Part shown: in pieces, positions 1 to 10,178 of the stretch
Layout: every line of letters starts with the position of its first letter
Position numbering within the stretch: the first letter of the stretch is position 1
Source of the DNA: Bacteroidales bacterium 52_46
Lineage (GTDB): Bacteria; Bacteroidota; Bacteroidia; Bacteroidales; Muribaculaceae
DNA: 64,000 nucleotides
Reading direction: 5' to 3'
NCBI GenBank assembly: GCA_001915385.1
Contig: MNQK01000031.1
Location: 133,166 to 197,165, forward strand
Program-made: the position numbers and the translations under genes
The notes under the pieces: model-generated
Told to the model about the DNA's origin: nothing
What the model saw: the letters and a program-made list of their open reading frames with translations, nothing else
Database searches by the model: none

Positions 1-1952
1 GACGTGAAGCGATTGCTCATCCATATACCAAGGTCGGTGTTGAACACATCGGCCTTTGATGTCTCGTTGGGATTGGCGGCTGTGAAGAATATCATTCCCG
101 GAAAACCGACCGACGGCTCGACCACGCTACCCGAGTAACATGTCTCGACAAACATACCGAGCTTCCGGTAGCCCTTTCTGTCACGTAGCGCAGAAAGCGC
201 AGTATGCACATCGGAAGCGCTGATACCCGACGACCTGTCACCCCAGCACAATGTCCCCGGCATGCCGTGACCGCTTATGAATACGAATATATTGGTACCA
301 TTGTCGCCGTCGAGCACCACCGGAGTAGCGGCAGTCGGGACACCCGCCACGATATTGCAGAAATCGGTAGGCGAAAGGTCGGCCAGACGGTAATCGATAT
401 TTACGTCATCATACAGATTGTCGCCTCCGGGAGCGACACGTATCACACCTTTCTCGGGATTGTGCGAGTCGCCGGCGATATCGTCGGCCATGATAAGTAT
501 GATATTGTCGTCGGTATAGCCGTGTTCCTTCAGCAGTTGATACATTGCAAGCACATCGGCCTGATGGCGGTAATTGCTCCAGCCTGTCGAAGTCGCCACA
601 AGCAGCGCGCGGTGCGAGGTCAGAGGGGCGTATGCAATCCCCGCGTCACCCTGTCCGAATTCCTGCATCTGCGTGGCTTTCCAGTTCCATCCGGCAAGAG
701 TGGCGTCAGTGCGGTTGCCTCCGTCGGCAGTGTTATAGTCAAGTATTATATATCCCCCTTCATATACCTTGTAGTTATAATATGTGGTCGACAGGACATT
801 GGTATATACCTTGCTGTCGAAATCGAGCCATCCCGACGCTCCGCGCACGTATGGAGCGTCGCCCCCGGCAAGCGCATTGACCACATTGCGCATATCCTCT
901 CCCATCCATGAACCCATATTGAAGTCACGTCCGTCGACCACCGTGCGCAACGCGTCGCGCAGCGTGGCGTCGGGATGCAGTTCCTGATACCACGCGGCAT
1001 ATACGAGAAGCATTGCGGCATCGTAGAGCTGTGCCGAACCTACAGTCGGAGCGGCACCGAAAAATGTCCTGAACGATACGTCAAATCCCGTTTCGGGATC
1101 GGCACCGAAGCACACTCCCTCTATACCCTCTGCCTTGCGGCCGAGCTGCTCTATCACGTCCGACCCATAGCCGATGTCGGAAAAGAGCAGACGCGGAGCG
1201 GGAGTATTCACCGAATTGAATATATCGACTACCCTCCCTATCTCGGCCACCGATGTCGGGGCGCACACCACATAGTCAGCACCCGACGATGCAGCCGCAC
1301 GGGCAGCCTCATCAATGGTCGAACCGCTGTAATTATGTATACCTTTCACTGTCAGTCCCAGCTCTTTGGCCTGAAAAGCGAACCAGTCGACAAATGTTTT
1401 ACCGTACGGGTCGGAACCGTCGGCAATAAGCCCGACCGATTTGCCGCCGTAGTTCACGACTTTACTGAGCAGCACCTCCGACTGCGTGATGTCGGTTTCG
1501 GTCATGGCCCAAAGATTGCCCGACGAGGCAAATCCGCGCACGAGGTCTTCGGTTGTGGCAAGCGTCATAAACGTCACTCCCGAGCGGCACAGCGTCATCG
1601 CAATCGTACGCGCATCGCCCGAATACAATCCGCCTATCACTGCATACACATCGTCACGCTCCACGAGTTCATGCGCCAGGTTCTCAAGATCTTCGGTCGT
1701 CTCGTCGTAATACTCGATGTTGAGCCTTACGGTTTTGTCACAGTCGGAAAATGCCTGCGCGGTATTGTACTGCAGCAGCGTGAATATACGCTGCCAGTGG
1801 AGGTAGAGACCATTCTCCATAGGGAGCACGACCGCCACAGTCTTTTCAACCGCGGGTTTCTCCTTGCCCGGAGTCATATCATCGTCATCCGAGCAACTCC
1901 ACAACGACAATGACATAATCATTGCACACAATAACAGGATTCTGTTTTTCAT
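1..1952 (-). CDS. Legumain-like C13 family cysteine peptidase fused to an N-terminal periplasmic-binding-protein-like domain; lipoprotein. The C-terminus runs off the window edge.
   Basis: I translated the minus strand by hand from the ATG at 1952-1950. The N-terminus MKNRILLLCAMIMSLSLWSCSDDDD is a lipobox. The C-terminal part contains legumain-type motifs: NYRHQADVLAMYQ, IILIMADD, FVFISGHG (catalytic His-Gly) and MFVETCYSGS (catalytic Cys). The frame is open to position 1. It is absent from the ORF track only because no stop codon lies in the window. Its start overlaps the upstream stop as ATGA. Confidence 0.75.
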   Translation of the reverse strand, partial: MKNRILLLCAMIMSLSLWSCSDDDDMTPGKEKPAVEKTVAVVLPMENGLYLHWQRIFTLLQYNTAQAFSDCDKTVRLNIEYYDETTEDLENLAHELVERDDVYAVIGGLYSGDARTIAMTLCRSGVTFMTLATTEDLVRGFASSGNLWAMTETDITQSEVLLSKVVNYGGKSVGLIADGSDPYGKTFVDWFAFQAKELGLTVKGIHNYSGSTIDEAARAAASSGADYVVCAPTSVAEIGRVVDIFNSVNTPAPRLLFSDIGYGSDVIEQLGRKAEGIEGVCFGADPETGFDVSFRTFFGAAPTVGSAQLYDAAMLLVYAAWYQELHPDATLRDALRTVVDGRDFNMGSWMGEDMRNVVNALAGGDAPYVRGASGWLDFDSKVYTNVLSTTYYNYKVYEGGYIILDYNTADGGNRTDATLAGWNWKATQMQEFGQGDAGIAYAPLTSHRALLVATSTGWSNYRHQADVLAMYQLLKEHGYTDDNIILIMADDIAGDSHNPEKGVIRVAPGGDNLYDDVNIDYRLADLSPTDFCNIVAGVPTAATPVVLDGDNGTNIFVFISGHGMPGTLCWGDRSSGISASDVHTALSALRDRKGYRKLGMFVETCYSGSVVEPSVGFPGMIFFTAANPNETSKADVFNTDLGIWMSNRFT

Positions 1953-3001
1953 AGCTGCGATTTCTCCTTTCTGACAGCCTCGTCACGCGCGGCGGCCACT
2001 ACCGGTTCATATTGCGTGAAAAATGGCGACAACTGCCAGTCGGTATAGCCGCTGGCGAGTCCGAACACCGCCGATTCGGGCAGTTCGCCGTCAGTAAGCC
2101 AAGCCTCCAGATAGTTGTAGACAACGCTGTCGATATGTTTTATCACGCTGCCGGTGATATTGCGCGACAACGCCGACTGGTCTATATCCATGCCGGCGGT
2201 AAGAGGGGCGTCGGCATACTCGCGTGTATAGCGGTATATGCCCGAATTACTTCCTCCGGCTACCGGGAATACGAAGCTGTAGCTTTGCGACCACCGGCTC
2301 ATATTCCGGTAAGCTAACTGAGCCGATACATATCCCGTCCAGTCGTCGGCGAGATATTCGGTATCCACTTTTGCTGCGGAAGTCGTAGCATAAAAACCGT
2401 CACTGAAACTTGCCGCGGCCTGCGCCGTGACTGCATCGTCGGGATGCGCGAGCACAATCAGCGCGTCTTTGCTTTCGCCCGTCTGACGCAATCCGTCGAT
2501 ATATGTGGCTGCCGTCACTCCGGCGAGATACGACGCTCCGGCCATCGTCAGATGGAATGTAGTCACCGGAAGTCCCATCTCATTGTCGCTCTCAAACAGA
2601 AGAATACGCTTATTGGCCGAAAGCGGATGACGGCGCAGACACATACCGGTCAAGGCCTCGTAGTCGTCACTCGCCACCACAAACAGTGCCGGCACATCGC
2701 TTTCGGGTAGAGACAACCAGTCGGTAAGCAACCGTTCGGCCTCATTGATGGAGCCTGGAGAATACTGGTAGACATCGGCCTTACCATAAAAGTTTTTCTT
2801 GAACGACTGCACACCTGCCAGTATGCAGTCGTTATATCCCTGGTCGCCGAGTCCGCCGGGAGCATACATCACCACAACCTGCGGCCGGGGCGAAGCAAGC
2901 GGCGTATACGCATCATCGTCCGACGAGCAAGCAGACAGCCCCGACAGTGCCGTCGCCGCCAACAATGCCGACAATATGCTATTTTTACAATATCTGTTCA
3001 T
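1949..3001 (-). CDS. BMP-family (basic membrane protein, PnrA-like) substrate-binding lipoprotein
   Basis: 350-aa ORF with lipoprotein signal LSGLSACSSDDD. The segment VVVMYAPGGLGDQGYNDCILAGVQ resembles a BMP/Med-type periplasmic binding fold. Confidence 0.65.
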   Translation of the reverse strand: MNRYCKNSILSALLAATALSGLSACSSDDDAYTPLASPRPQVVVMYAPGGLGDQGYNDCILAGVQSFKKNFYGKADVYQYSPGSINEAERLLTDWLSLPESDVPALFVVASDDYEALTGMCLRRHPLSANKRILLFESDNEMGLPVTTFHLTMAGASYLAGVTAATYIDGLRQTGESKDALIVLAHPDDAVTAQAAASFSDGFYATTSAAKVDTEYLADDWTGYVSAQLAYRNMSRWSQSYSFVFPVAGGSNSGIYRYTREYADAPLTAGMDIDQSALSRNITGSVIKHIDSVVYNYLEAWLTDGELPESAVFGLASGYTDWQLSPFFTQYEPVVAAARDEAVRKEKSQL

Positions 3002-3068
3002 AGTTCCAATTAATAAAACGGAATTTTTCTTTAAAAATTATACGCCTGCCGATAGTTCTTGCTAATTG

Positions 3069-4205
3069 CTAATACTCTTCCTCCGGAAATTCCACAATCG
3101 TATAACGGTCACTCAACTCATTGTTTTTATCATAAGTAAAGTAACGGGCGTGGCTGTTACGGTGCTGTGGCACATTTGGCGACCAATTACGTTTGAAATA
3201 CATATTTCCTGACTTGAATCTGGTTGAATTGGGCGATTCCTGTTTTCCCAATATCACATAGTAGCTTCTTGACTCCCACACACGCCAGAACCACCACAGA
3301 TATTTGTTGTCCCACGTATCTCCGTACTGATATTGGTTTTCCGTCCCATTTTCTATGCTTATGGTGCGGGTAAACAAGTCGGTGACATAGCCCAGCCGCT
3401 TTCCTCTCTGTTTTTCAAGTTTCTGCAACCCGGCGAGCACGTTCTTGAAATCCTGTCTGTCGACAACCCACCATGTCGACAAAGCGTCCCATGCATCTTT
3501 TCCTGCACACTTTTTATATGAAGTGTATGACTTATATTTGTCGGAACGCGCTGTCGTTTCCCAGCCGTAATCCACGGTCATCATTATGCCGTCGCCTGCG
3601 CTCGAATACTCACGCACTACCAACCAATAATATTCCTTGTCATTTACTTTCTCGCATAAAATATCTCCTATGGCGTATGGTGAAATGATACTGTTATCAG
3701 GCCATGCCTCGGGAGTAAGTATATGCAATGTGGTAACCGTACCCCGCAACCTCGGCATATCGAATGAAATACGGGCAAGTTCCCCGGCGTCACGGCCGCG
3801 GGAATAAGTCACGGTGCCGTTATATCCCAGGTCATAGGTCATGAGGGATTCCGTACCGCTGAGGAAATCTTTTCCCAACTCGCTGTCAGCGAGCGTATGA
3901 CAAAAGAAATCAAAAGCTTCAGCTTCATCTTTCATAGTGCATGACAGTTCGTCAGGAAACGCCTCTTCAAGTGCCTTGCCCCACCGGGGAGTAAGAATTT
4001 CCAACGGCCCCGCAGAATCGATTTCACAAAAAGTAGTCACCAATTTGTCAGCAAGTACATCAGACAGCGGCACAATTTCCGCCTCCTCGTCAGGTTCCTC
4101 GTCGATGACCGGGTCATCGTCAGAACATGCCGTCATGAACGGCAATACAACTGCCCCCAACGCTATGCGGAATATGTTTCTTACGTATATATGCATCTGT
4201 TTCAT
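3069..4205 (-). CDS. Hypothetical lipoprotein (378 aa), Trp/Tyr-rich
   Basis: ORF with signal peptide and lipobox FMTACSDDD. I recognise no conserved motif. It sits inside the lipoprotein operon. Confidence 0.65.
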   Translation of the reverse strand: MKQMHIYVRNIFRIALGAVVLPFMTACSDDDPVIDEEPDEEAEIVPLSDVLADKLVTTFCEIDSAGPLEILTPRWGKALEEAFPDELSCTMKDEAEAFDFFCHTLADSELGKDFLSGTESLMTYDLGYNGTVTYSRGRDAGELARISFDMPRLRGTVTTLHILTPEAWPDNSIISPYAIGDILCEKVNDKEYYWLVVREYSSAGDGIMMTVDYGWETTARSDKYKSYTSYKKCAGKDAWDALSTWWVVDRQDFKNVLAGLQKLEKQRGKRLGYVTDLFTRTISIENGTENQYQYGDTWDNKYLWWFWRVWESRSYYVILGKQESPNSTRFKSGNMYFKRNWSPNVPQHRNSHARYFTYDKNNELSDRYTIVEFPEEEY

Positions 4206-4221
4206 TTTTTCATATTATCGT

Positions 4222-6570
4222 TTAAAGATTGGGATACGTGAAATATCGCGTCCTGAACAGCCGCACGGGATACATTTTGTTGATACCCGATATTACCTGA
4301 GTATCCCATGTATAGTCAGGTTTAAGCACAAGCGCATAACCTTTTGTTGTCGATTTGGCCGACTCCTTGAACGCTATGTAGCAATTGGAATTGTCGGTCG
4401 GCGACGATGTGCCGGTGGAGAAGTATCCGCAGAACTGTGCGTCAAAACCACTCGTACCGCCTTTGAACAACGACTTGGTATTGCGTCCTATATAATCCGT
4501 CAGATTTTCCTTGTCATGTTCGGTAGGGAGGTACCAGTAAAGCGCCATGTCTACGCTTGGCTCACGTTTTGAACCGTAGACGCCCGAGTTGGCCGACAGG
4601 AAGGCCGACCGCTGGTTAAGTATATAGGCATACAGCATATCGGCATTTCCATCGTTATAGATACGCTCTCGACGTGTGAATGACCGTCCGCTCAATGTCC
4701 CGAAATACATGCTCTCCATAATATTCCTTCTTGTCCAGTACCCGGAACCTATCTTAACAACGTCATACATGATATTGGAAGCGTTGAACTGCAGTTGATG
4801 CGGCAACGTCTTTGTATCGGGCGCCGGTCGGCATTTCACGCCGTAGTCCTGTTCGTAAAAATTGCCGTGCATCCAGTAGGCGGTCGTTATGCGGTCGTAA
4901 TAGCCGAAACCCTCTATCGGCTCTACATAACAGGTATTCTCATAGAAGCTGACAAATGCCGGACGATTGCCCTCGCCGTCGCCGGGGAAAAGCCCCTGAC
5001 TGTGGCTCGTGCGGCCGTTCTTTATCGGATAGAATACGGTCACTCGGCGGTCGGTACGGATTTTAGGCACATATTCCGAACAGATTTCAAGCAGCGGAGT
5101 GCCATTGCTGTACATCACCTTCACCAGCGAGCCTGAGCCATCGGCCGGAAACGTGAAATCCTTACTTGTCAGGTCAATCACATAATTGTCAATGCCGAGC
5201 TCCTGGTCGGTATACATGTTGTTGCTTTGGTTTGACATTCCCGCCACAACGTCCTGCACCTCCGCGCGTATTTTCGGGTCAGCAAAAAGATCCCATATCG
5301 GCATGAAGTTGAAATCAATGATGTCGAGATTTTTCTTATTTGATGGAGTATAGACTACCCTCGACAACCATTCCTGCAACAAATTATTGGGAAGCGCCCC
5401 GGTGTCACTAAGCCCGCTTATCGCGTTTTTCAGGGCGGCGCGGGTGTCTGCCGTACCGCCTGCTATGGAGAATGTATAGTCATTTGACATCGAACTCGTC
5501 ACTACCGAATGCGACGATGACGAACTGCTGCCGGTGCTCTTGCCGAATACCCGCGAGCACTGTTCCTCGGCATCCTTTTCAAATTCCGACGCATACGTGC
5601 GGTCGAACGTCACGACATAGTCTATCGAACCGCCGGCGAGTGCCTCGATGACGAGATGCGTGCCGTATGTGTTGACCATGTTTTTGATTTTGTCACGACG
5701 GGTCGAGGAGTTTGCATCAATTACCTTTTTATAATGTTCCCTGAAGCCCTGCGTGAACGGCAGTTCGTCAACGCCATACGTCGCGACAAGATATTCCAGC
5801 ACGCCGCGGTCGATGCTTCGCGACGATACTATCTTATAGAGTCGTGCGTATGCCATATAGCTTTCCGAAAGGTCGTGGGATGTTACCTCCTTAAATCGTC
5901 TTATCGTCTTCTTGACTCCTAAGAAACTGCTCGTTTTCTCCATCTTTTTTGTGAGATGGCTCGACATCTCCTGCATCGAGAAGGCCGACACGATTTCAAA
6001 CTTCTCGCTGCCGCGTATTACCTCCTGCACGCTTTGGAACGTGCTGTCGGAGTCAATGCTGCCCATAAGCGCGGTATCTATAATCCTACCCTGCACGCTG
6101 TTGCGGTTCTTGTACTCGCCGAAAGCGTTGAATCCCCACCCCACGCGATAGTCGCTCATCACGTCGGTATCGGCATTGTCGTCATAATCGCCTTCGCCAC
6201 GCTGATATATCTCTATCACAGCGCGTTTGCGCAGGTCGGGAGCACGGAATACCAGCGTGGCGCGGCGTCCGGCCACATCGTCGTTGTCGTCGGTGCGGAA
6301 TTCCACGATGCCGTCGGCCGGGAGCGTCGACGACGTGAGGTGCAGCCAGTCGGCGTCAGAAGTTATTTCGACGTTACCGGCGTCCCCTGGAGTTACGGTA
6401 AACGAATAGTACCGGCCATGGCTCTCCACTACCGGCAGTTCGTATGTCAATTCCAGCGTGTCTTCGCATTCAGCTCCTGGCAATGCATCATCGTCGGAGC
6501 ATCCGGCAAGACAGAACGCCGCAATGATTGCAGGCAGCAGCCTGCGATATATAAAATAAAGGTTATTCAT
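4222..6570 (-). CDS. MACPF-domain lipoprotein (paralog 1) with N-terminal BACON-like domain and long C-terminal extension
   Basis: 782-aa ORF with lipobox LAGCSDDD. The N-terminal segment SDADWLHLTSSTLPADGIVEF...RATLVF is BACON/Ig-like. The MACPF signature is YGTHLVIEALAGGS, matching Y-G-T-H-x7-GG. The conserved downstream motif MPIWDLF is shared with the two neighbouring paralogs. Confidence 0.8.
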   Translation of the reverse strand: MNNLYFIYRRLLPAIIAAFCLAGCSDDDALPGAECEDTLELTYELPVVESHGRYYSFTVTPGDAGNVEITSDADWLHLTSSTLPADGIVEFRTDDNDDVAGRRATLVFRAPDLRKRAVIEIYQRGEGDYDDNADTDVMSDYRVGWGFNAFGEYKNRNSVQGRIIDTALMGSIDSDSTFQSVQEVIRGSEKFEIVSAFSMQEMSSHLTKKMEKTSSFLGVKKTIRRFKEVTSHDLSESYMAYARLYKIVSSRSIDRGVLEYLVATYGVDELPFTQGFREHYKKVIDANSSTRRDKIKNMVNTYGTHLVIEALAGGSIDYVVTFDRTYASEFEKDAEEQCSRVFGKSTGSSSSSSHSVVTSSMSNDYTFSIAGGTADTRAALKNAISGLSDTGALPNNLLQEWLSRVVYTPSNKKNLDIIDFNFMPIWDLFADPKIRAEVQDVVAGMSNQSNNMYTDQELGIDNYVIDLTSKDFTFPADGSGSLVKVMYSNGTPLLEICSEYVPKIRTDRRVTVFYPIKNGRTSHSQGLFPGDGEGNRPAFVSFYENTCYVEPIEGFGYYDRITTAYWMHGNFYEQDYGVKCRPAPDTKTLPHQLQFNASNIMYDVVKIGSGYWTRRNIMESMYFGTLSGRSFTRRERIYNDGNADMLYAYILNQRSAFLSANSGVYGSKREPSVDMALYWYLPTEHDKENLTDYIGRNTKSLFKGGTSGFDAQFCGYFSTGTSSPTDNSNCYIAFKESAKSTTKGYALVLKPDYTWDTQVISGINKMYPVRLFRTRYFTYPNL

Positions 6571-8521
6571 AACTTACCTCCCTCGGATTGTAGATATATA
6601 CATAATCAGCGTCACGCCACATCCGGCCGGGGTAATCCTTCGAGGGGAAGAATGTGGGATATGCCTCATACTCCTTCAAAGGCACGGCGTCCATCCAGCT
6701 CCAGCCGGGCAGATTGGTGTAACGGTTTTTGTTCTCGAGATAGAAATGTCCGAAATGCTTGTAGACCTTGAGCATCGTGCCTCCTATCGTACCGTCGGGG
6801 AGCACTCCTCCCGGACGCTCGCAGCCGAGTATGGCATGTGAGCCGACATACGGCAGATTGTCAGCCTTTTTAGTCGAGAGCGCGCCCATATTGATATATA
6901 TGAGATTGCCCGACGGCGCGTCGTCGCGTTCCTTGACAAAAAACTTATAGCCGTTCCAGGCCACATCATACGCTTTGCCGTTGTGCACGCACAGTCCGGC
7001 ATCGAGTTGCACACGGCCCTCGTATATCGGATAAGCCACATGTACTTTTGTCCCGTTTCCGGCAATTTCAGGCACATATTCACGGCATACAGTCGCAACG
7101 TGGCGGTTGGAAGATATGATGTCGACCACATCGGGGTCGCTGAACGTGCGCCATTCGCCTGCTATACGGCATCTCACACTTCCGGGATTGGAGTCAAAGG
7201 AAGTATTGATGAAGTTCTTGTTGCCGAACGATTCGGCCAGCAGCGCGGCATTGCCCATTACGCGGCCTTCAACGAGTTCGGCAACAGTCCTGTCGGGAAT
7301 GAACTCCCATATCGGAACTACCTCCATGTCGGTCATCTCGACATTGGATTTTGTAATGTCGCTGTCGTTGTGATATACCGAACCAATCCAGCCTGTCACC
7401 ATGCTTTCAGCAGTTCCGTCGGTGTTGAAACTATTAAGGTCGATGACCTTGTCAAGATAGCTGAGGTCACCGCCGAGTATGCTGAGACGGCATTTTCCGT
7501 CGCGCAATATCTCGTAGTTGTGGGTCTGCGACGATGATTCCGACTTCATCTTGAACAGCGTCGCTATTGACACTCCGGCCATCGCTTCGGCCTGCTCGCG
7601 GTAGTCAAACTTGTGGGTGTCAACCTGCACCTCGAGCGTCAGACGCGCACCGAGTTTGGAATATACGACCACATGCGTGCCGTATTTGTACAGGAAGTTG
7701 TCGACATCATTCAGCGTGTGTATATTGCTGACCGCATAGCGGAAACTGCTGGTAAGCATGGAGGGATATTTCCTGGCGTATTCCCTTATGCCGGCTTCGT
7801 CGAGCGAATACTCGGCGCGGTCAATCCATACCTCGTTCTTGAGGATATAGCTGCTTTTGGTCCCTTCCTCAAACAGCGAGCAACTCATCGAAGCGTCGCC
7901 CGAAAAAAGCACAATATCGCCCGAAGCCCCTGCATAGACATTGGAATGCTGTATATAATCCACTACCGACGAATAGCTTTCATGAGTATAGTGCATTTCG
8001 TTAAGATTGGACGAAATGAGGAAATTGTATCCGGCGGTCTGGCCATACTTCTCAAGCATGGCTCGGTTGAGTATCTGACATCGGAAATCACTCATGTCGC
8101 AGTACCTTCCCTCGACGGCGTTGTAGGAGTATCCGATGCCGTGATGACGCATGAACTGGCGTCCCGACGCGCTCCTCGACACCGGCTTCTGGGCGAAATG
8201 CAACGTGCCGCGAGTGCCGTCATCATACACCACTTCAAGCGTGGCGCGACGCTCTGCCGGCTCGTCATTCTGCTCGAAATATACGGTGCCGTTGTCGACA
8301 ACGGTGATGAAACCGCCATCCTCGGCCGTGACCGATACTATAGGGCGCCCGTCGGCCGGTAGGGTATAATAGCCGTCCTCGCCGGATATTGCAATAGCGG
8401 AAATAGTGTCGTCCCCCGGGGGAACGACACTATCCATCTTATCATCTTCGCACCCCGTGGCCAGCAACAGCGGCAGCAGGAACGCGGTCACGAATCTTAT
8501 TGAACGCATGTAAGAATGCAT
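6563..8521 (-). CDS. MACPF-domain lipoprotein (paralog 2)
   Basis: 652-aa ORF with lipobox LLATGCEDD. MACPF-like motif YKYGTHVVVYSKLGARL and conserved VPIWEFI. Its C-terminal domain is paralogous to that of paralog 1 (CREYVPEI versus CSEYVPKI). It overlaps the downstream gene by 8 nt. Confidence 0.75.
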   Translation of the reverse strand: MHSYMRSIRFVTAFLLPLLLATGCEDDKMDSVVPPGDDTISAIAISGEDGYYTLPADGRPIVSVTAEDGGFITVVDNGTVYFEQNDEPAERRATLEVVYDDGTRGTLHFAQKPVSRSASGRQFMRHHGIGYSYNAVEGRYCDMSDFRCQILNRAMLEKYGQTAGYNFLISSNLNEMHYTHESYSSVVDYIQHSNVYAGASGDIVLFSGDASMSCSLFEEGTKSSYILKNEVWIDRAEYSLDEAGIREYARKYPSMLTSSFRYAVSNIHTLNDVDNFLYKYGTHVVVYSKLGARLTLEVQVDTHKFDYREQAEAMAGVSIATLFKMKSESSSQTHNYEILRDGKCRLSILGGDLSYLDKVIDLNSFNTDGTAESMVTGWIGSVYHNDSDITKSNVEMTDMEVVPIWEFIPDRTVAELVEGRVMGNAALLAESFGNKNFINTSFDSNPGSVRCRIAGEWRTFSDPDVVDIISSNRHVATVCREYVPEIAGNGTKVHVAYPIYEGRVQLDAGLCVHNGKAYDVAWNGYKFFVKERDDAPSGNLIYINMGALSTKKADNLPYVGSHAILGCERPGGVLPDGTIGGTMLKVYKHFGHFYLENKNRYTNLPGWSWMDAVPLKEYEAYPTFFPSKDYPGRMWRDADYVYIYNPREVSYE

Positions 8522-8522
8522 A

Positions 8523-10043
8523 TTAACGGGTGTGTGTTGATTTTATTTTCACTTTCCGGACATCGGTCGACTCGCCTGCAAGGTATCTCTTTATGAAGGT
8601 CGAATTGGGATATATGCCTTCCAGATAGTTTATCACCGCATCCTGACATTCGAAATCATCGAATATCTCCCATATCGGGATGATATCGACCTGAAGCAGG
8701 TCGGCGTTGCATTTCGTATAGTCGACATCATTCCTGATACTGTACGCCCAATCCTTGATACGGTCGGGAAGTCCGGTATCGGAATAATCGGCATTGCTCA
8801 ACGCCGTGAGCACTTCGCCTGCTTTCGTCATGTCACCACCGGCAACCTCAAGTTTGTAACGGCTGTTCTGAAGTACGGAAATCGAACTGTTGAGATAACT
8901 TACCTCTACATCAGCGTCAAGTTTGAACAGTCCGAGTTCAAAACCTACTTTGACAGTAGCGGTATCTACCCTCATCACTTCCTTTATATAAAGTGAGTCC
9001 ATGTCGAGATCCATTGTGATGCGTCCGCCAAGAGTCGAGCCTACGACAACACCTGTACCGTAGTTATTGACAAGCTGACGGATATATCGGTTGGCGACGG
9101 CAGTGTTGTTGCTTTTTACCGCAGTCTCGATATTTTTCCGCAATCCTGCCATACCGGTAGTCAGTATGGTTTTGCGGAAATCGTTTTTAGGCGCATTCTC
9201 TTCAGCCATATAATTGGAATAGTGCGTCAAGGCGTCCATATACGAGATGCCGGCGTCAAGAGTAGGATACTCTGCACTATATGCCAACTTCATGGTGTGG
9301 TCTTTCAGATCCTCATTACCGTGGTATGCACCGGAAATGCCGAAATGGAACTTGGCATAGGATACATTGAGCTGGAAGGCGACGCCGAGCGAGTCCCGCT
9401 TATCGATTATCGAATCCATATTCGCTGCCTCAAAATTGAGATTTGCACGCGGCACAGCACTTACGATATTGGCATAATCATCTTCACCGCTATCAAGGAG
9501 TTTTTCCAACGATGCGAGATTGAATACCGAGTTGCGCGAATAATTCAGTCCTACGGGTGTCCCTTTTTTATACTGACTGTCATAATACTCGATAAGGTTA
9601 CAGCCTACTCCGAGTTTCTTTGTGGCTGCTGTCTGGATATAGTCATTATCTCCATTGTCGGCAACTATTCCGTCAAGCTCACCGTACTGCGAGATACGGA
9701 ACTCAGTGGTAGCGCCGCCGGCATTCAGCGTCGCAGTGACGGTACGCATTTCGCCACCTATATTGTCGTCAAGCACGATAGTCATGACATCACGGCCGTT
9801 GCCGGAGTCATTGAGCACTGTGAGCCAGTCGCAGGTGTCGGGTACACTTACGCTCCATGCTCCCGCAGCCTCAACGGGTATCTCTACGATATTACTTTGC
9901 GCATATACGCTCAGTCCATTCTCAATAATATTTTTATCGATAGGCTGTCCGGCGGGAGTATCGTCGTCGGAACATGCCGCCAGACAGGACATGAAAAGTA
10001 TCCCTGCAGTTGCAAGACAGGTCTTTATGATTGATTTTTTCAT
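8523..10043 (-). CDS. MACPF-like lipoprotein (paralog 3, short form)
   Basis: The ORF opens at 10103, but the likely start is the internal Met of MKKSIIKTCLATAGILFMSCLAACSDDD. The segment CDWLTVLNDSGNGRDVMTIV is BACON-like. MACPF-like motif NNYGTGVVVGSTLGGRI and conserved IPIWEIF. It lies 1 nt from the next gene. Confidence 0.7.
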   Translation of the reverse strand: MKKSIIKTCLATAGILFMSCLAACSDDDTPAGQPIDKNIIENGLSVYAQSNIVEIPVEAAGAWSVSVPDTCDWLTVLNDSGNGRDVMTIVLDDNIGGEMRTVTATLNAGGATTEFRISQYGELDGIVADNGDNDYIQTAATKKLGVGCNLIEYYDSQYKKGTPVGLNYSRNSVFNLASLEKLLDSGEDDYANIVSAVPRANLNFEAANMDSIIDKRDSLGVAFQLNVSYAKFHFGISGAYHGNEDLKDHTMKLAYSAEYPTLDAGISYMDALTHYSNYMAEENAPKNDFRKTILTTGMAGLRKNIETAVKSNNTAVANRYIRQLVNNYGTGVVVGSTLGGRITMDLDMDSLYIKEVMRVDTATVKVGFELGLFKLDADVEVSYLNSSISVLQNSRYKLEVAGGDMTKAGEVLTALSNADYSDTGLPDRIKDWAYSIRNDVDYTKCNADLLQVDIIPIWEIFDDFECQDAVINYLEGIYPNSTFIKRYLAGESTDVRKVKIKSTHTR

Positions 10044-10178
10044 AATAATGTGATGATGAAAGTAAGCAGCTGCCGAATTAAACATGCAGAAACGGCACTT
10101 CAATTTATAACAGCTGCCTACCGGTTTGCGGGTTGTTATGATTTATGGAATGTTTTGAAACGGTATTCTATTCACCGG

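Follow-up and report, generated by a model that had tools for sequence, protein, structure and literature searches.

A conserved Bacteroidales operon pairing three diverged MACPF lipoproteins with a legumain-type protease, a putative multi-component pore-forming system

The stretch of DNA analysed here (the window; 64,000 nt, positions 133,166 to 197,165 of contig MNQK01000031.1) belongs to a human gut metagenome-assembled genome (MAG), Bacteroidales bacterium 52_46 of the Muribaculaceae, and begins with a minus-strand run of genes that encode, in order, the lipoprotein L180, three MACPF-domain proteins termed MACPF-C, MACPF-B and MACPF-A (hereafter C, B and A; together, the triad), the lipoprotein L378, a Bmp/PnrA-like lipoprotein, and PBP-C13, which joins a periplasmic-binding protein (PBP) domain to a legumain-like cysteine protease (Table 1). 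C and B are separated by 1 nt, B and A overlap by 8 nt, A and L378 are 16 nt apart, and Bmp and PBP-C13 overlap by 4 nt, spacings which indicate that the run is translationally coupled. In the NCBI annotation of the source MAG, C starts at the same codon, the MACPF genes are each labelled hypothetical protein and the protease is labelled "legumain". A first-pass annotation, made from the sequence alone, had described three consecutive MACPF lipoprotein genes at 4222-10043; all three open reading frames are found there on the minus strand, the third being of 506 amino acids (aa) instead of the ~507 given. The extent assigned to the unit was too small: the conserved unit also takes in L378, Bmp, the legumain-like protease and L180, and the whole is an operon of six to seven surface-lipoprotein genes in which the triad is the proposed pore-forming core.

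Table 1. Features of the MACPF cassette and its surroundings (window positions; CTD, C-terminal domain).
Feature	Coordinates	Strand	Description
MACPF-C	8523..10043	(-)	506 aa; BACON and MACPF domains, no C-terminal domain; putative polymerising membrane-spanning subunit
MACPF-B	6563..8521	(-)	652-aa lipoprotein; small N-terminal domain, MACPF domain, ~220-aa C-terminal region; putative adaptor or second inserting subunit
MACPF-A	4222..6570	(-)	782-aa lipoprotein; BACON-like domain, MACPF domain, CTD1, FISUMP-like CTD2; putative target-recognising or nucleating subunit
MACPF signature of A, YGTHLVIEALAGGS	5626..5667	(-)	Canonical
MACPF signature of B, YGTHVVVYSKLGAR	7643..7684	(-)	Ala replaces the second Gly of GG in half of class B
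MACPF signature of C, YGTGVVVGSTLGGR	9021..9062	(-)	
CTD1 of A (aa 451-581)	4828..5220	(-)	From hhalign against the B profile
CTD2 of A (aa 582-782)	4225..4827	(-)	Weakly FISUMP/Fib_succ_major-like; putative ligand-binding domain
Linker Asn codon of C (N130)	9654..9656	(-)	Candidate asparaginyl-endopeptidase cleavage site
Linker Asn codon of A (N132)	6175..6177	(-)	Candidate cleavage site
L378	3069..4205	(-)	378-aa surface lipoprotein; candidate immunity or specificity partner
Bmp/PnrA-like lipoprotein	1949..3001	(-)	350 aa; Pfam Bmp 55.7 bits
PBP-C13 lipoprotein	1..1952	(-)	Runs off window start; 650 of 703 aa in window
L180	10179..10721	(-)	180-aa lipoprotein, first gene of run; accessory
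Bacteroidetes-type -7 motif, TAATTTTG	10988..10995	(-)	Upstream of L180; putative operon promoter
AraC-type protein	11214..12893	(+)	559 aa; HTH_18 56.2 bits (Pfam); divergent from cassette
tmRNA (ssrA)	14223..14622	(-)	Rfam RF00023, 130.9 bits; tag peptide GEKQYALAA

A, B and C each start with a signal peptide and the lipobox reported in the first-pass annotation (LAGC, ATGC and LAAC, respectively), the lipidated residue being Cys24 in every case. The residues that follow (SDDD in A and C, EDDK in B) form an acidic export signal, and in BSAPs, the MACPF toxins of gut Bacteroidales, acidic residues after the lipidated Cys constitute the Bacteroidota surface-export signal (PMC12853789). Both lipobox and export signal are kept in nearly all orthologues. 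In pairwise BLASTP comparisons, the three proteins are 22-29% identical (E 3e-15 to 9e-14), in agreement with the earlier description of diverged MACPF paralogues in one operon. That they are recent pseudogenised duplicates, a possibility raised at that stage, is ruled out by their intact open reading frames (no frameshifts were found), by this low identity and by the monophyly of the three classes (see below). Exact copies of gene A occur on at least 8 independent contigs.

Profile searches and structure prediction place the triad in the MACPF family proper, as the first-pass annotation had proposed. All three proteins exceed the Pfam gathering threshold of 21.5 bits for MACPF (PF01823), with A at 50.5, B at 36.0 and C at 25.4 bits, and all carry the quoted signatures and the downstream motif PIW[DE][LFI][FI] (found as PIWDLF, PIWEFI and PIWEIF). 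Among orthologues, the model is matched at E<=0.01 by 32/32 class A, 22/22 class B and 13/21 class C proteins; the other 8 of 21 class C proteins miss this level though they are clear orthologues (one example lies at 6516-7946 of locus L007). In AlphaFold2 models, A and C adopt the MACPF fold, with a bent central beta-sheet flanked by two hairpin clusters (mean predicted local distance difference test score, pLDDT, of 79 for C). The PlyB pore is the top Foldseek match of both models (6e-15 for C, followed by polyC9 at 1e-12), and the strongest hits of the triad proteins, both by structure and by profile, include C6, C8 and C9. The hairpin regions of A and C were drawn as long extended beta-hairpins, i.e., in the pore state, not as the helical bundles of soluble monomers, and for this reason the best PDB matches are pore-state structures. 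The match to the EaCDCL pore, which represents the CDC-like toxins (CDCLs) of Bacteroidota, is weak (2e-5). Membership of the CDCL family was ruled out, as A, B and C show no match at E<=0.1 to the Thiol_cytolysin domain (PF01289). A curated NCBIfam model of a "BSAP5a family pore-forming toxin" (NF053771; 549 positions, cut-off 500 bits) gives 12 bits with B and no match with A or C; the distant B-like protein P0069 reaches 25.9 bits.

The domains on either side of the MACPF core differ among the three proteins. The N-terminal BACON domain that the first-pass annotation had assigned to each of them (PF13004, gathering threshold 25 bits) is confirmed in C (29.5 bits). Window A stays under the threshold (22.2 bits), though 25/32 class A orthologues match the Pfam BACON profile and the model of A matches the BACON domain of 3zmr, whereas class B yields no Pfam BACON match either in the window or in any of 22 orthologues. 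The long C-terminal domain said to be common to two of the proteins was also partly upheld: profile-profile comparison by hhalign aligns A451-581 with B431-561 (probability 100%, E 2e-44), but this shared domain, CTD1, spans only ~130 aa and the alignment stops at A581/B561, beyond which the distal parts differ. The distal domain of A, CTD2, resembles Fib_succ_major at E 0.085 in the window protein and at E<=0.01 in 4/32 orthologues, and in the orthologue of locus L040 it matches TIGR02145 at E 1e-4 (model positions 10-173 of 176), all of these scores being under the curated cut-offs.

Conservation of the operon in related Bacteroidales was followed in 88 non-redundant loci, obtained from a B-seeded genome scan (34 loci), an A-seeded metagenome scan (61 loci; class C has no stretch conserved enough for seeding) and loci fetched earlier, after removal of near-identical copies. 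These loci come from Muribaculaceae, Prevotellaceae, Alloprevotella, Candidatus Cryptobacteroides, a Bacteroides sp. and many rumen assemblies. B orthologues of 65%, 47% and 46% identity sit in the same cassette with different outer flanks. Among the 44 informative loci, i.e., those in which A is complete and flanked on each side by at least 4.5 kb, B and C are both present in 43. Two gene orders occur, C-B-A (34 loci) and C-A-(L378)-B (28 loci), and the layout in which A and B have a C-terminal domain and C has none holds across all loci. In a joint alignment, each class is monophyletic, with 11-22% identity between classes against within-class means of 27-35%, and the pairwise distances of the three classes are correlated (r = 0.89-0.91). 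This pattern indicates an ancient triplication inherited as a set, as opposed to a recent duplication or a variable arsenal. Rearrangements do occur: in a human gut contig of 174978 bp (L102), the order is Bmp-C13-C-C-C-A-B and the products of the three tandem class C-like genes measure 432-481 aa, and locus L058 has two tandem cassettes (C-A-L378-B-Bmp-C13, then C-A...). Cassette contigs at four loci (L023, L024, L036 and L043) had been binned into MAGs labelled Methanomethylophilaceae archaeon, Clostridiales or Oribacterium; given their Bacteroidales-type lipoproteins, these labels are likely due to mis-binning.

The classes also differ in how they compare with the reference MACPF signature (Y/W-G-T/S-H-F/Y-x6-G-G). 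Class A is canonical ([YF]GTH...GG; YGTH...GG in the window). Class B has G[AG] in place of GG (GA in the window) and class C no longer has the His ([YF]G[PT]x...GG; YGTG in the window), departures that look like class-specific degeneration of the kind seen among complement paralogues. The predicted membrane-inserting hairpins diverge as well. When the best alternating hydrophobic face was scored over the distal half of each predicted hairpin in 27-28 orthologues per class, the two hairpins (TMH1/TMH2) scored 3.8/3.1 in C, 2.75/2.05 in B and 1.26/0.81 in A on this home-made metric, and ~30% of the residues in class A hairpins are charged. On this basis, the hairpins of C appear to be of the textbook amphipathic transmembrane type and those of A too polar to span a membrane.

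These observations bear on the choice, left open in the first-pass annotation, between a multi-component system and a diversified arsenal. As an arsenal, A, B and C would be three independent BSAP-like toxins that form their own homo-oligomeric pores at different receptors and are merely co-transcribed, a view in keeping with the lipobox and over-threshold MACPF domain of each protein, with the distinct distal C-terminal domains of A and B, which could bind different receptors, and with the fact that every characterised BSAP works alone (PMC4999547, PMC12853789, preprint 10.64898/2026.08.05.742979). However, the copy number and make-up of an arsenal would be expected to vary, whereas one member of each ancient class is found in 43/44 loci. 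Moreover, C has no receptor-binding C-terminal domain, the hairpins of A have too much polarity and charge to suit a transmembrane barrel, the signature degenerates in class-specific ways, and amplification strikes A together with L378 next to a single B and a single C. We therefore regard the arsenal as unlikely, and the comparative evidence favours a multi-component system on account of the 1:1:1 retention across families, the monophyly and correlated distances of the classes, and their specialised domains, signatures and hairpins.

The amplifications just mentioned point to a particular relation between A and L378. An L378-family gene follows A in 60/71 cases, and its product has a conserved N-terminal part of ~200 aa followed by a variable remainder; L378 paralogues of 400 aa and ~800 aa often flank the cassette. 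In rumen loci L103, L082 and L079, A-L378 pairs have undergone tandem amplification next to one C and one B gene (the order in L103 being C-B-A-L378-A, and L082 holding at least 4 copies of A). Loci with tandem amplification of A-L378 and/or Bmp-C13 comprise L082, L079, L070, L083, L072, L059 and L103. The amplified A copies are mosaics, in which the BACON domains are 90-100% and the MACPF domains 84-100% identical while the identity of the C-terminal domains is either ~70% or 97-100% and does not depend on the MACPF part, as would be expected of a swappable specificity domain. In these arrays, L378 varies with the type of C-terminal domain that A carries, not with its MACPF domain (partial r = 0.91): one pair of copies shows identities of 100% in MACPF, 69% in the C-terminal domain and 41% in L378, and another 92%, 100% and 100%, respectively. 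Among 45 close-locus pairs, L378 is the most divergent cassette gene, with a median identity 13 points under that of B and a lower identity than B in 84% of the pairs, and it often falls into discrete allelic types. This behaviour is in keeping with a cognate partner for immunity or specificity, comparable to the CDCL immunity lipoprotein BcdI or to CD59. L378 has no relative in Pfam, NCBIfam, PADLOC or PDB sequences. Its identification as a cryptic MACPF protein was rejected, as hhalign against class A aligns the signal peptide alone, and so was that of the cassette as an anti-phage defence system, which has no PADLOC match. Compared with its closest relative, L048, the window is 74-79% identical at the nucleotide level over L378, 79-85% over C and 92-99% in the rest of the compared region, and the two discrete islands of divergence (8650-10150 and 2950-4150) cover exactly C and L378, which suggests allelic replacement or diversifying selection.

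The variability of L378 is relevant to the question of the target. A co-operating three-part pore might be aimed at eukaryotic membranes, such as those of the host epithelium, rumen and gut protozoa, or fungi. MACPF/CDC proteins classically attack eukaryotic cells, and the rumen and gut communities where the cassette is very common are rich in protozoa and fungi; in addition, neither the window nor the related loci have outer-membrane-protein or glycosyltransferase genes within or next to the cassette, i.e., the outer-membrane-protein or O-antigen "replacement" genes that accompany BSAPs are missing. Against such a target, a hypervariable L378 that is swapped together with the A C-terminal domain follows the toxin-immunity arms-race pattern of related bacteria, a cognate self-protection gene would be needless, and every Bacteroidales MACPF or CDCL toxin that has been tested acts against bacteria (PMC11901371), which together make an attack on eukaryotes improbable. 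A role other than as a toxin, namely remodelling of the producer's own outer membrane or vesicles for cargo release or uptake, or surface adhesion, is very unlikely. All components are predicted surface lipoproteins of the producer, and BT_3439 and Plu-MACPF are MACPF proteins without demonstrated lytic activity; nevertheless, the strong conservation of the amphipathic transmembrane hairpins of C, the allelic hypervariability of L378 and C, which fits conflict and not housekeeping, and the patchy distribution of the cassette in varying genomic contexts all speak against such a role.

The distal end of the operon encodes the putative activating protease. PBP-C13 consists of an N-terminal Peripla_BP_6 domain and a legumain-like C13 domain (phmmer E 2.3e-32 against mammalian legumain), and the window protein is 100% identical to its L002 orthologue. 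The cassette protease aligns with legumain (MEROPS family C13, clan CD) over the domain, including the catalytic residues and the NYRHQAD motif: the catalytic His and Cys (GHG/SHG; [AT]C[YFR][SA]G) are invariant in 26/26 full-length C13 orthologues, in which the oxyanion/S1 motif NYR[HF]QAD is also conserved. Unlike legumain, it is a bacterial lipoprotein with an N-terminal periplasmic-binding domain; it shows no C-terminal LSAM prodomain and ends ~15 aa past the protease domain. The gene is present in 43/48 triad loci with enough flanking sequence, and Bmp directly precedes it in 61/63 cases. The five triad loci without C13 are L052 and four loci of a Cryptobacteroides-like subgroup; in L066, of the same subgroup, C13 lies upstream.

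Candidate substrates are provided by the triad itself. In both C and A, the otherwise variable linker between the BACON and MACPF domains holds an invariant Asn (27/27 class C and 28/28 class A orthologues, the latter in the context D..DN[AGSD]), and the linker is the least confident part of both AlphaFold2 models, with pLDDT <50 at N130 of C and at residues 130-133 of A. By N-terminal cleavage, a clan-CD protease activates BSAP-1, whose C-terminal domain binds the receptor (preprint 10.64898/2026.08.05.742979; PMC12853789); cleavage at R38 frees the protein from its lipid tether and triggers formation of a 13-mer pore (preprint 10.64898/2026.08.05.742979). Proteases of this clan also activate CDCL, Fab1 and BcpT (preprint 10.64898/2026.08.05.742979; PMC11169675; PMC11901371). 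By analogy with these precedents, we infer that the C13 protease may cleave A and C after the linker Asn.

Alternatively, Bmp and PBP-C13 might form a separate syntenic module, for example for the capture or processing of peptides and nucleosides at the surface, without activating the MACPF proteins, and the linker Asn might be structural. Both proteins have solute-binding-protein folds, and their genes are amplified as a unit of their own (x2 to x3 in rumen metagenome loci) and are missing downstream of B in the Cryptobacteroides-like subgroup. The 67-nt gap between L378 and Bmp contains a sigma-70-like match, TTAGCA-17-TATAAT (10/12 positions; 3037-3065, minus strand), a possible internal promoter of the Bmp-C13 pair. 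Furthermore, the S1-pocket Asp is not conserved, the equivalent of legumain D231 being Ile or Val in every C13 orthologue, so that Asn specificity is not assured. On the other side stand the linkage of Bmp-C13 to the triad in the great majority of loci, across families and two gene orders while the outer flanks change, the upstream C13 of L066 within the exceptional subgroup, the status of the Asn as the sole invariant residue in two variable, disordered linkers, and the known activation of pore-forming toxins by clan-CD proteases (PMC11901371). A separate module is therefore rather doubtful, if less so than a eukaryotic target or an arsenal.

Taken together, these comparative data tip the balance, with modest confidence, towards a cassette that encodes a three-component, protease-licensed, hetero-oligomeric MACPF pore with a hypervariable partner, most likely directed against competing bacteria. 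According to this proposal, the proteins would be exposed at the surface of the cell or of outer-membrane vesicles, anchored by their lipidated BACON domains. A, with its long lectin-like C-terminal domain and polar hairpins, would bind the target surface and nucleate assembly; B, with an intermediate C-terminal domain and intermediate hairpins, would act as the adaptor; and C, lacking a C-terminal domain and equipped with hairpins of the canonical, alternating hydrophobic kind, would be recruited, polymerise and build most of the beta-barrel, in parallel to C9 in the complement membrane attack complex (MAC) and CDCL-S in CDC-like toxins. PBP-C13, together with Bmp, would cut after the linker Asn of A and C, freeing both from their lipid tethers and licensing oligomerisation. 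L378, the fastest-evolving component, would serve as the cognate immunity or specificity partner and be exchanged along with the A C-terminal domain.

Several points weigh against this reading. The characterised PF01823 BSAPs all act alone as homo-oligomers, BSAP-1 forming a 13-mer (PMC4999547, PMC12853789, preprint 10.64898/2026.08.05.742979), and the protease that activates BSAP-1 and CDCL is that of the target cell, whereas the cassette protease is encoded in the toxin operon. Co-occurrence and correlated distances would also be expected from plain co-inheritance of an operon, and the co-variation of L378 with the A C-terminal domain could reflect mere adjacency in one recombination block; in the lineage of the window, the divergent genes are C and L378, not the part of A that encodes its C-terminal domain. 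The hairpin score lacks calibration on proteins of known behaviour. As for the protease, the replacement of the D231 equivalent counts here too, and the orthologue alignment reveals no invariant linker Asn in class B.

A more elaborate version of the three-component pore can be put forward tentatively, as a possibility short of probable, in which the cassette is a self-contained bacterial "membrane attack complex" with A as initiator, B as adaptor and C as polymeriser, all three BACON-tethered and obligate partners of one another, with a protease of its own that would arm them at the invariant linker Asn and with L378 as a check; as part of the same tentative picture, the solute-binding domains fused to and paired with the protease would gate cleavage through their ligand, and L378 would act like CD59 or BcdI and be swapped together with the targeting domain. 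If so, the logic of complement (convertase, initiators, polymeriser and self-inhibitor) would have had an independent origin among gut and rumen Bacteroidales, in the MACPF family proper.

Complement offers a ready comparison. Like the proposed triad, the MAC (C5b-C6-C7-C8-C9) consists of diverged MACPF paralogues with divided labour, in which initiators that penetrate the membrane partly or not at all are followed by a polymerising member, C9, and it has an upstream proteolytic trigger and a dedicated self-inhibitor at the surface, CD59. Membrane penetration is graded across C6, C7, C8 and C9. The grading of hairpins and domains across A, B and C appears to mirror this series as well as the long and short CDCL subunits (PMC11952106). 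Unlike the MAC, the triad represents an independent bacterial radiation that is tethered by lipoprotein anchors, its ancillary BACON and FISUMP-like domains are unrelated to those of complement, and its assembly order is a matter of inference. In pleurotolysin/OlyA-PlyB and other two-component toxins of the aegerolysin-MACPF type, the MACPF pore-former likewise depends on a separate partner to bind the membrane or receptor, as proposed for the triad, but that partner is a small aegerolysin and not a MACPF paralogue, and these toxins are fungal, with no protease and no lipoprotein tether.

Within Bacteroidota, the CDCLs (BfCDCL, EaCDCL) resemble the triad in that adjacent genes encode paralogous pore-formers of the MACPF/CDC superfamily that are signal peptidase II (SpII) lipoproteins, with long subunits that carry a C-terminal binding domain and a short subunit that does not. 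Adjacent two- and three-gene CDCL arrays, likened to the complement MAC, have been described (PMC11169675, PMC11952106), the three-gene arrays in 61 genomes (PMC11169675). In CDCL, one long subunit recruits short ones, protease activation is needed, and BcdI is the immunity lipoprotein (PMC11169675, PMC11952106); the likeness to the proposed triad thus extends to a MAC-like order of assembly, dependence on a clan-CD protease and an adjacent lipoprotein, L378 being the putative counterpart of BcdI. The differences are also marked. CDCLs are defined by PF01289, whereas the triad proteins match PF01823, have BACON tethers and belong to three obligate classes, against two in CDCLs; the operon encodes its own protease, a C13 legumain-type enzyme fused to a binding-protein domain, as opposed to a C11 enzyme of the target cell; unlike BcdI, L378 has no detectable relative; and the hosts of the triad are Muribaculaceae, Prevotellaceae and rumen taxa.

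BSAP-1 to BSAP-4 share with the triad the PF01823 domain, the lipoprotein nature and the export signal, and in BSAPs specificity derives from the C-terminal domain and a clan-CD protease removes the N-terminal region to trigger the pore. Yet BSAPs are single genes that form homo-oligomeric pores, whereas the triad comprises three specialised paralogues inherited with a protease, Bmp and L378, and its identity to any named BSAP family is negligible. BSAPs also adjoin a resistant replacement of their target, which the cassette does not; L378 could play an analogous role.

The first-pass annotation had held that a packed array of three MACPF paralogues is not a described arrangement. Given the CDCL arrays, this is true only in a narrower sense: our literature search found no description of a PF01823-type triad or of its link to a legumain-type protease, and nothing relevant on BSAP-5/BSAP5a, on MACPF proteins in Muribaculaceae or on MACPF together with legumain. 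The NCBIfam name BSAP5a hints at unpublished or unsearchable work on multi-part BSAPs. So far, the PF01823 toxins of gut Bacteroidales have been treated as single-protein weapons. BACON-MACPF proteins, some of them without a C-terminal domain, have been catalogued in Bacteroidota by a structural survey that left open how the latter find receptors and noted the receptor of BT_3439 as unknown (PMC12853789). The cassette suggests that the proteins without a C-terminal domain are polymerising subunits of multi-part systems, for which a partner does the targeting. In addition, as ~40% of class C proteins escape the Pfam MACPF model, domain-based surveys undercount such triads. Should the proposed mechanism prove true, the cassette would offer a genetically tractable bacterial model of hetero-oligomeric MACPF assembly under the control of a dedicated protease and inhibitor, would give a function to bacterial legumain-like proteases, and would stand as a means of competition widespread among the Muribaculaceae and rumen Prevotellaceae, two abundant groups that have received little study.

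At the upstream end of the operon, L180 has no relative in Pfam, NCBIfam, PADLOC or PDB sequences. Its jackhmmer search was contaminated by lipoprotein signal peptides and only high-scoring matches were kept; with these, L180 recurs near the cassette in some distant lineages (loci L009, L012, L034 and L037, at 242, 197, 165 and 172 bits, respectively). The TAnnTTTG motif upstream of L180 is the sole minus-strand copy between positions 157 and 10995 and is the probable promoter of the operon. This call relies on the Bacteroidetes -7 motif and not on a sigma-70 promoter and terminator scan, which did no better than shuffled sequences and returned fewer sites than they did. Across the whole window, TAnnTTTG occurs 61 times against 32 +/- 6 expected from shuffles, an excess of ~2x.

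Beyond the promoter lies the divergent gene for an AraC-type protein, a possible regulator. Such a gene adjoins the cassette in loci L001, L009, L011 and L016, and the link is limited to Muribaculaceae-type loci. The ssrA gene further on points with its 3' end toward the AraC/MACPF cassette, ~3 kb off. Genes for tmRNA are common integration sites for islands. No integrase was found in the flanks of locus L001, whose contig is identical to the window. Just past ssrA, a low-GC patch at 15500-17000 has a GC content of 0.31-0.34, against 0.45-0.60 around it.

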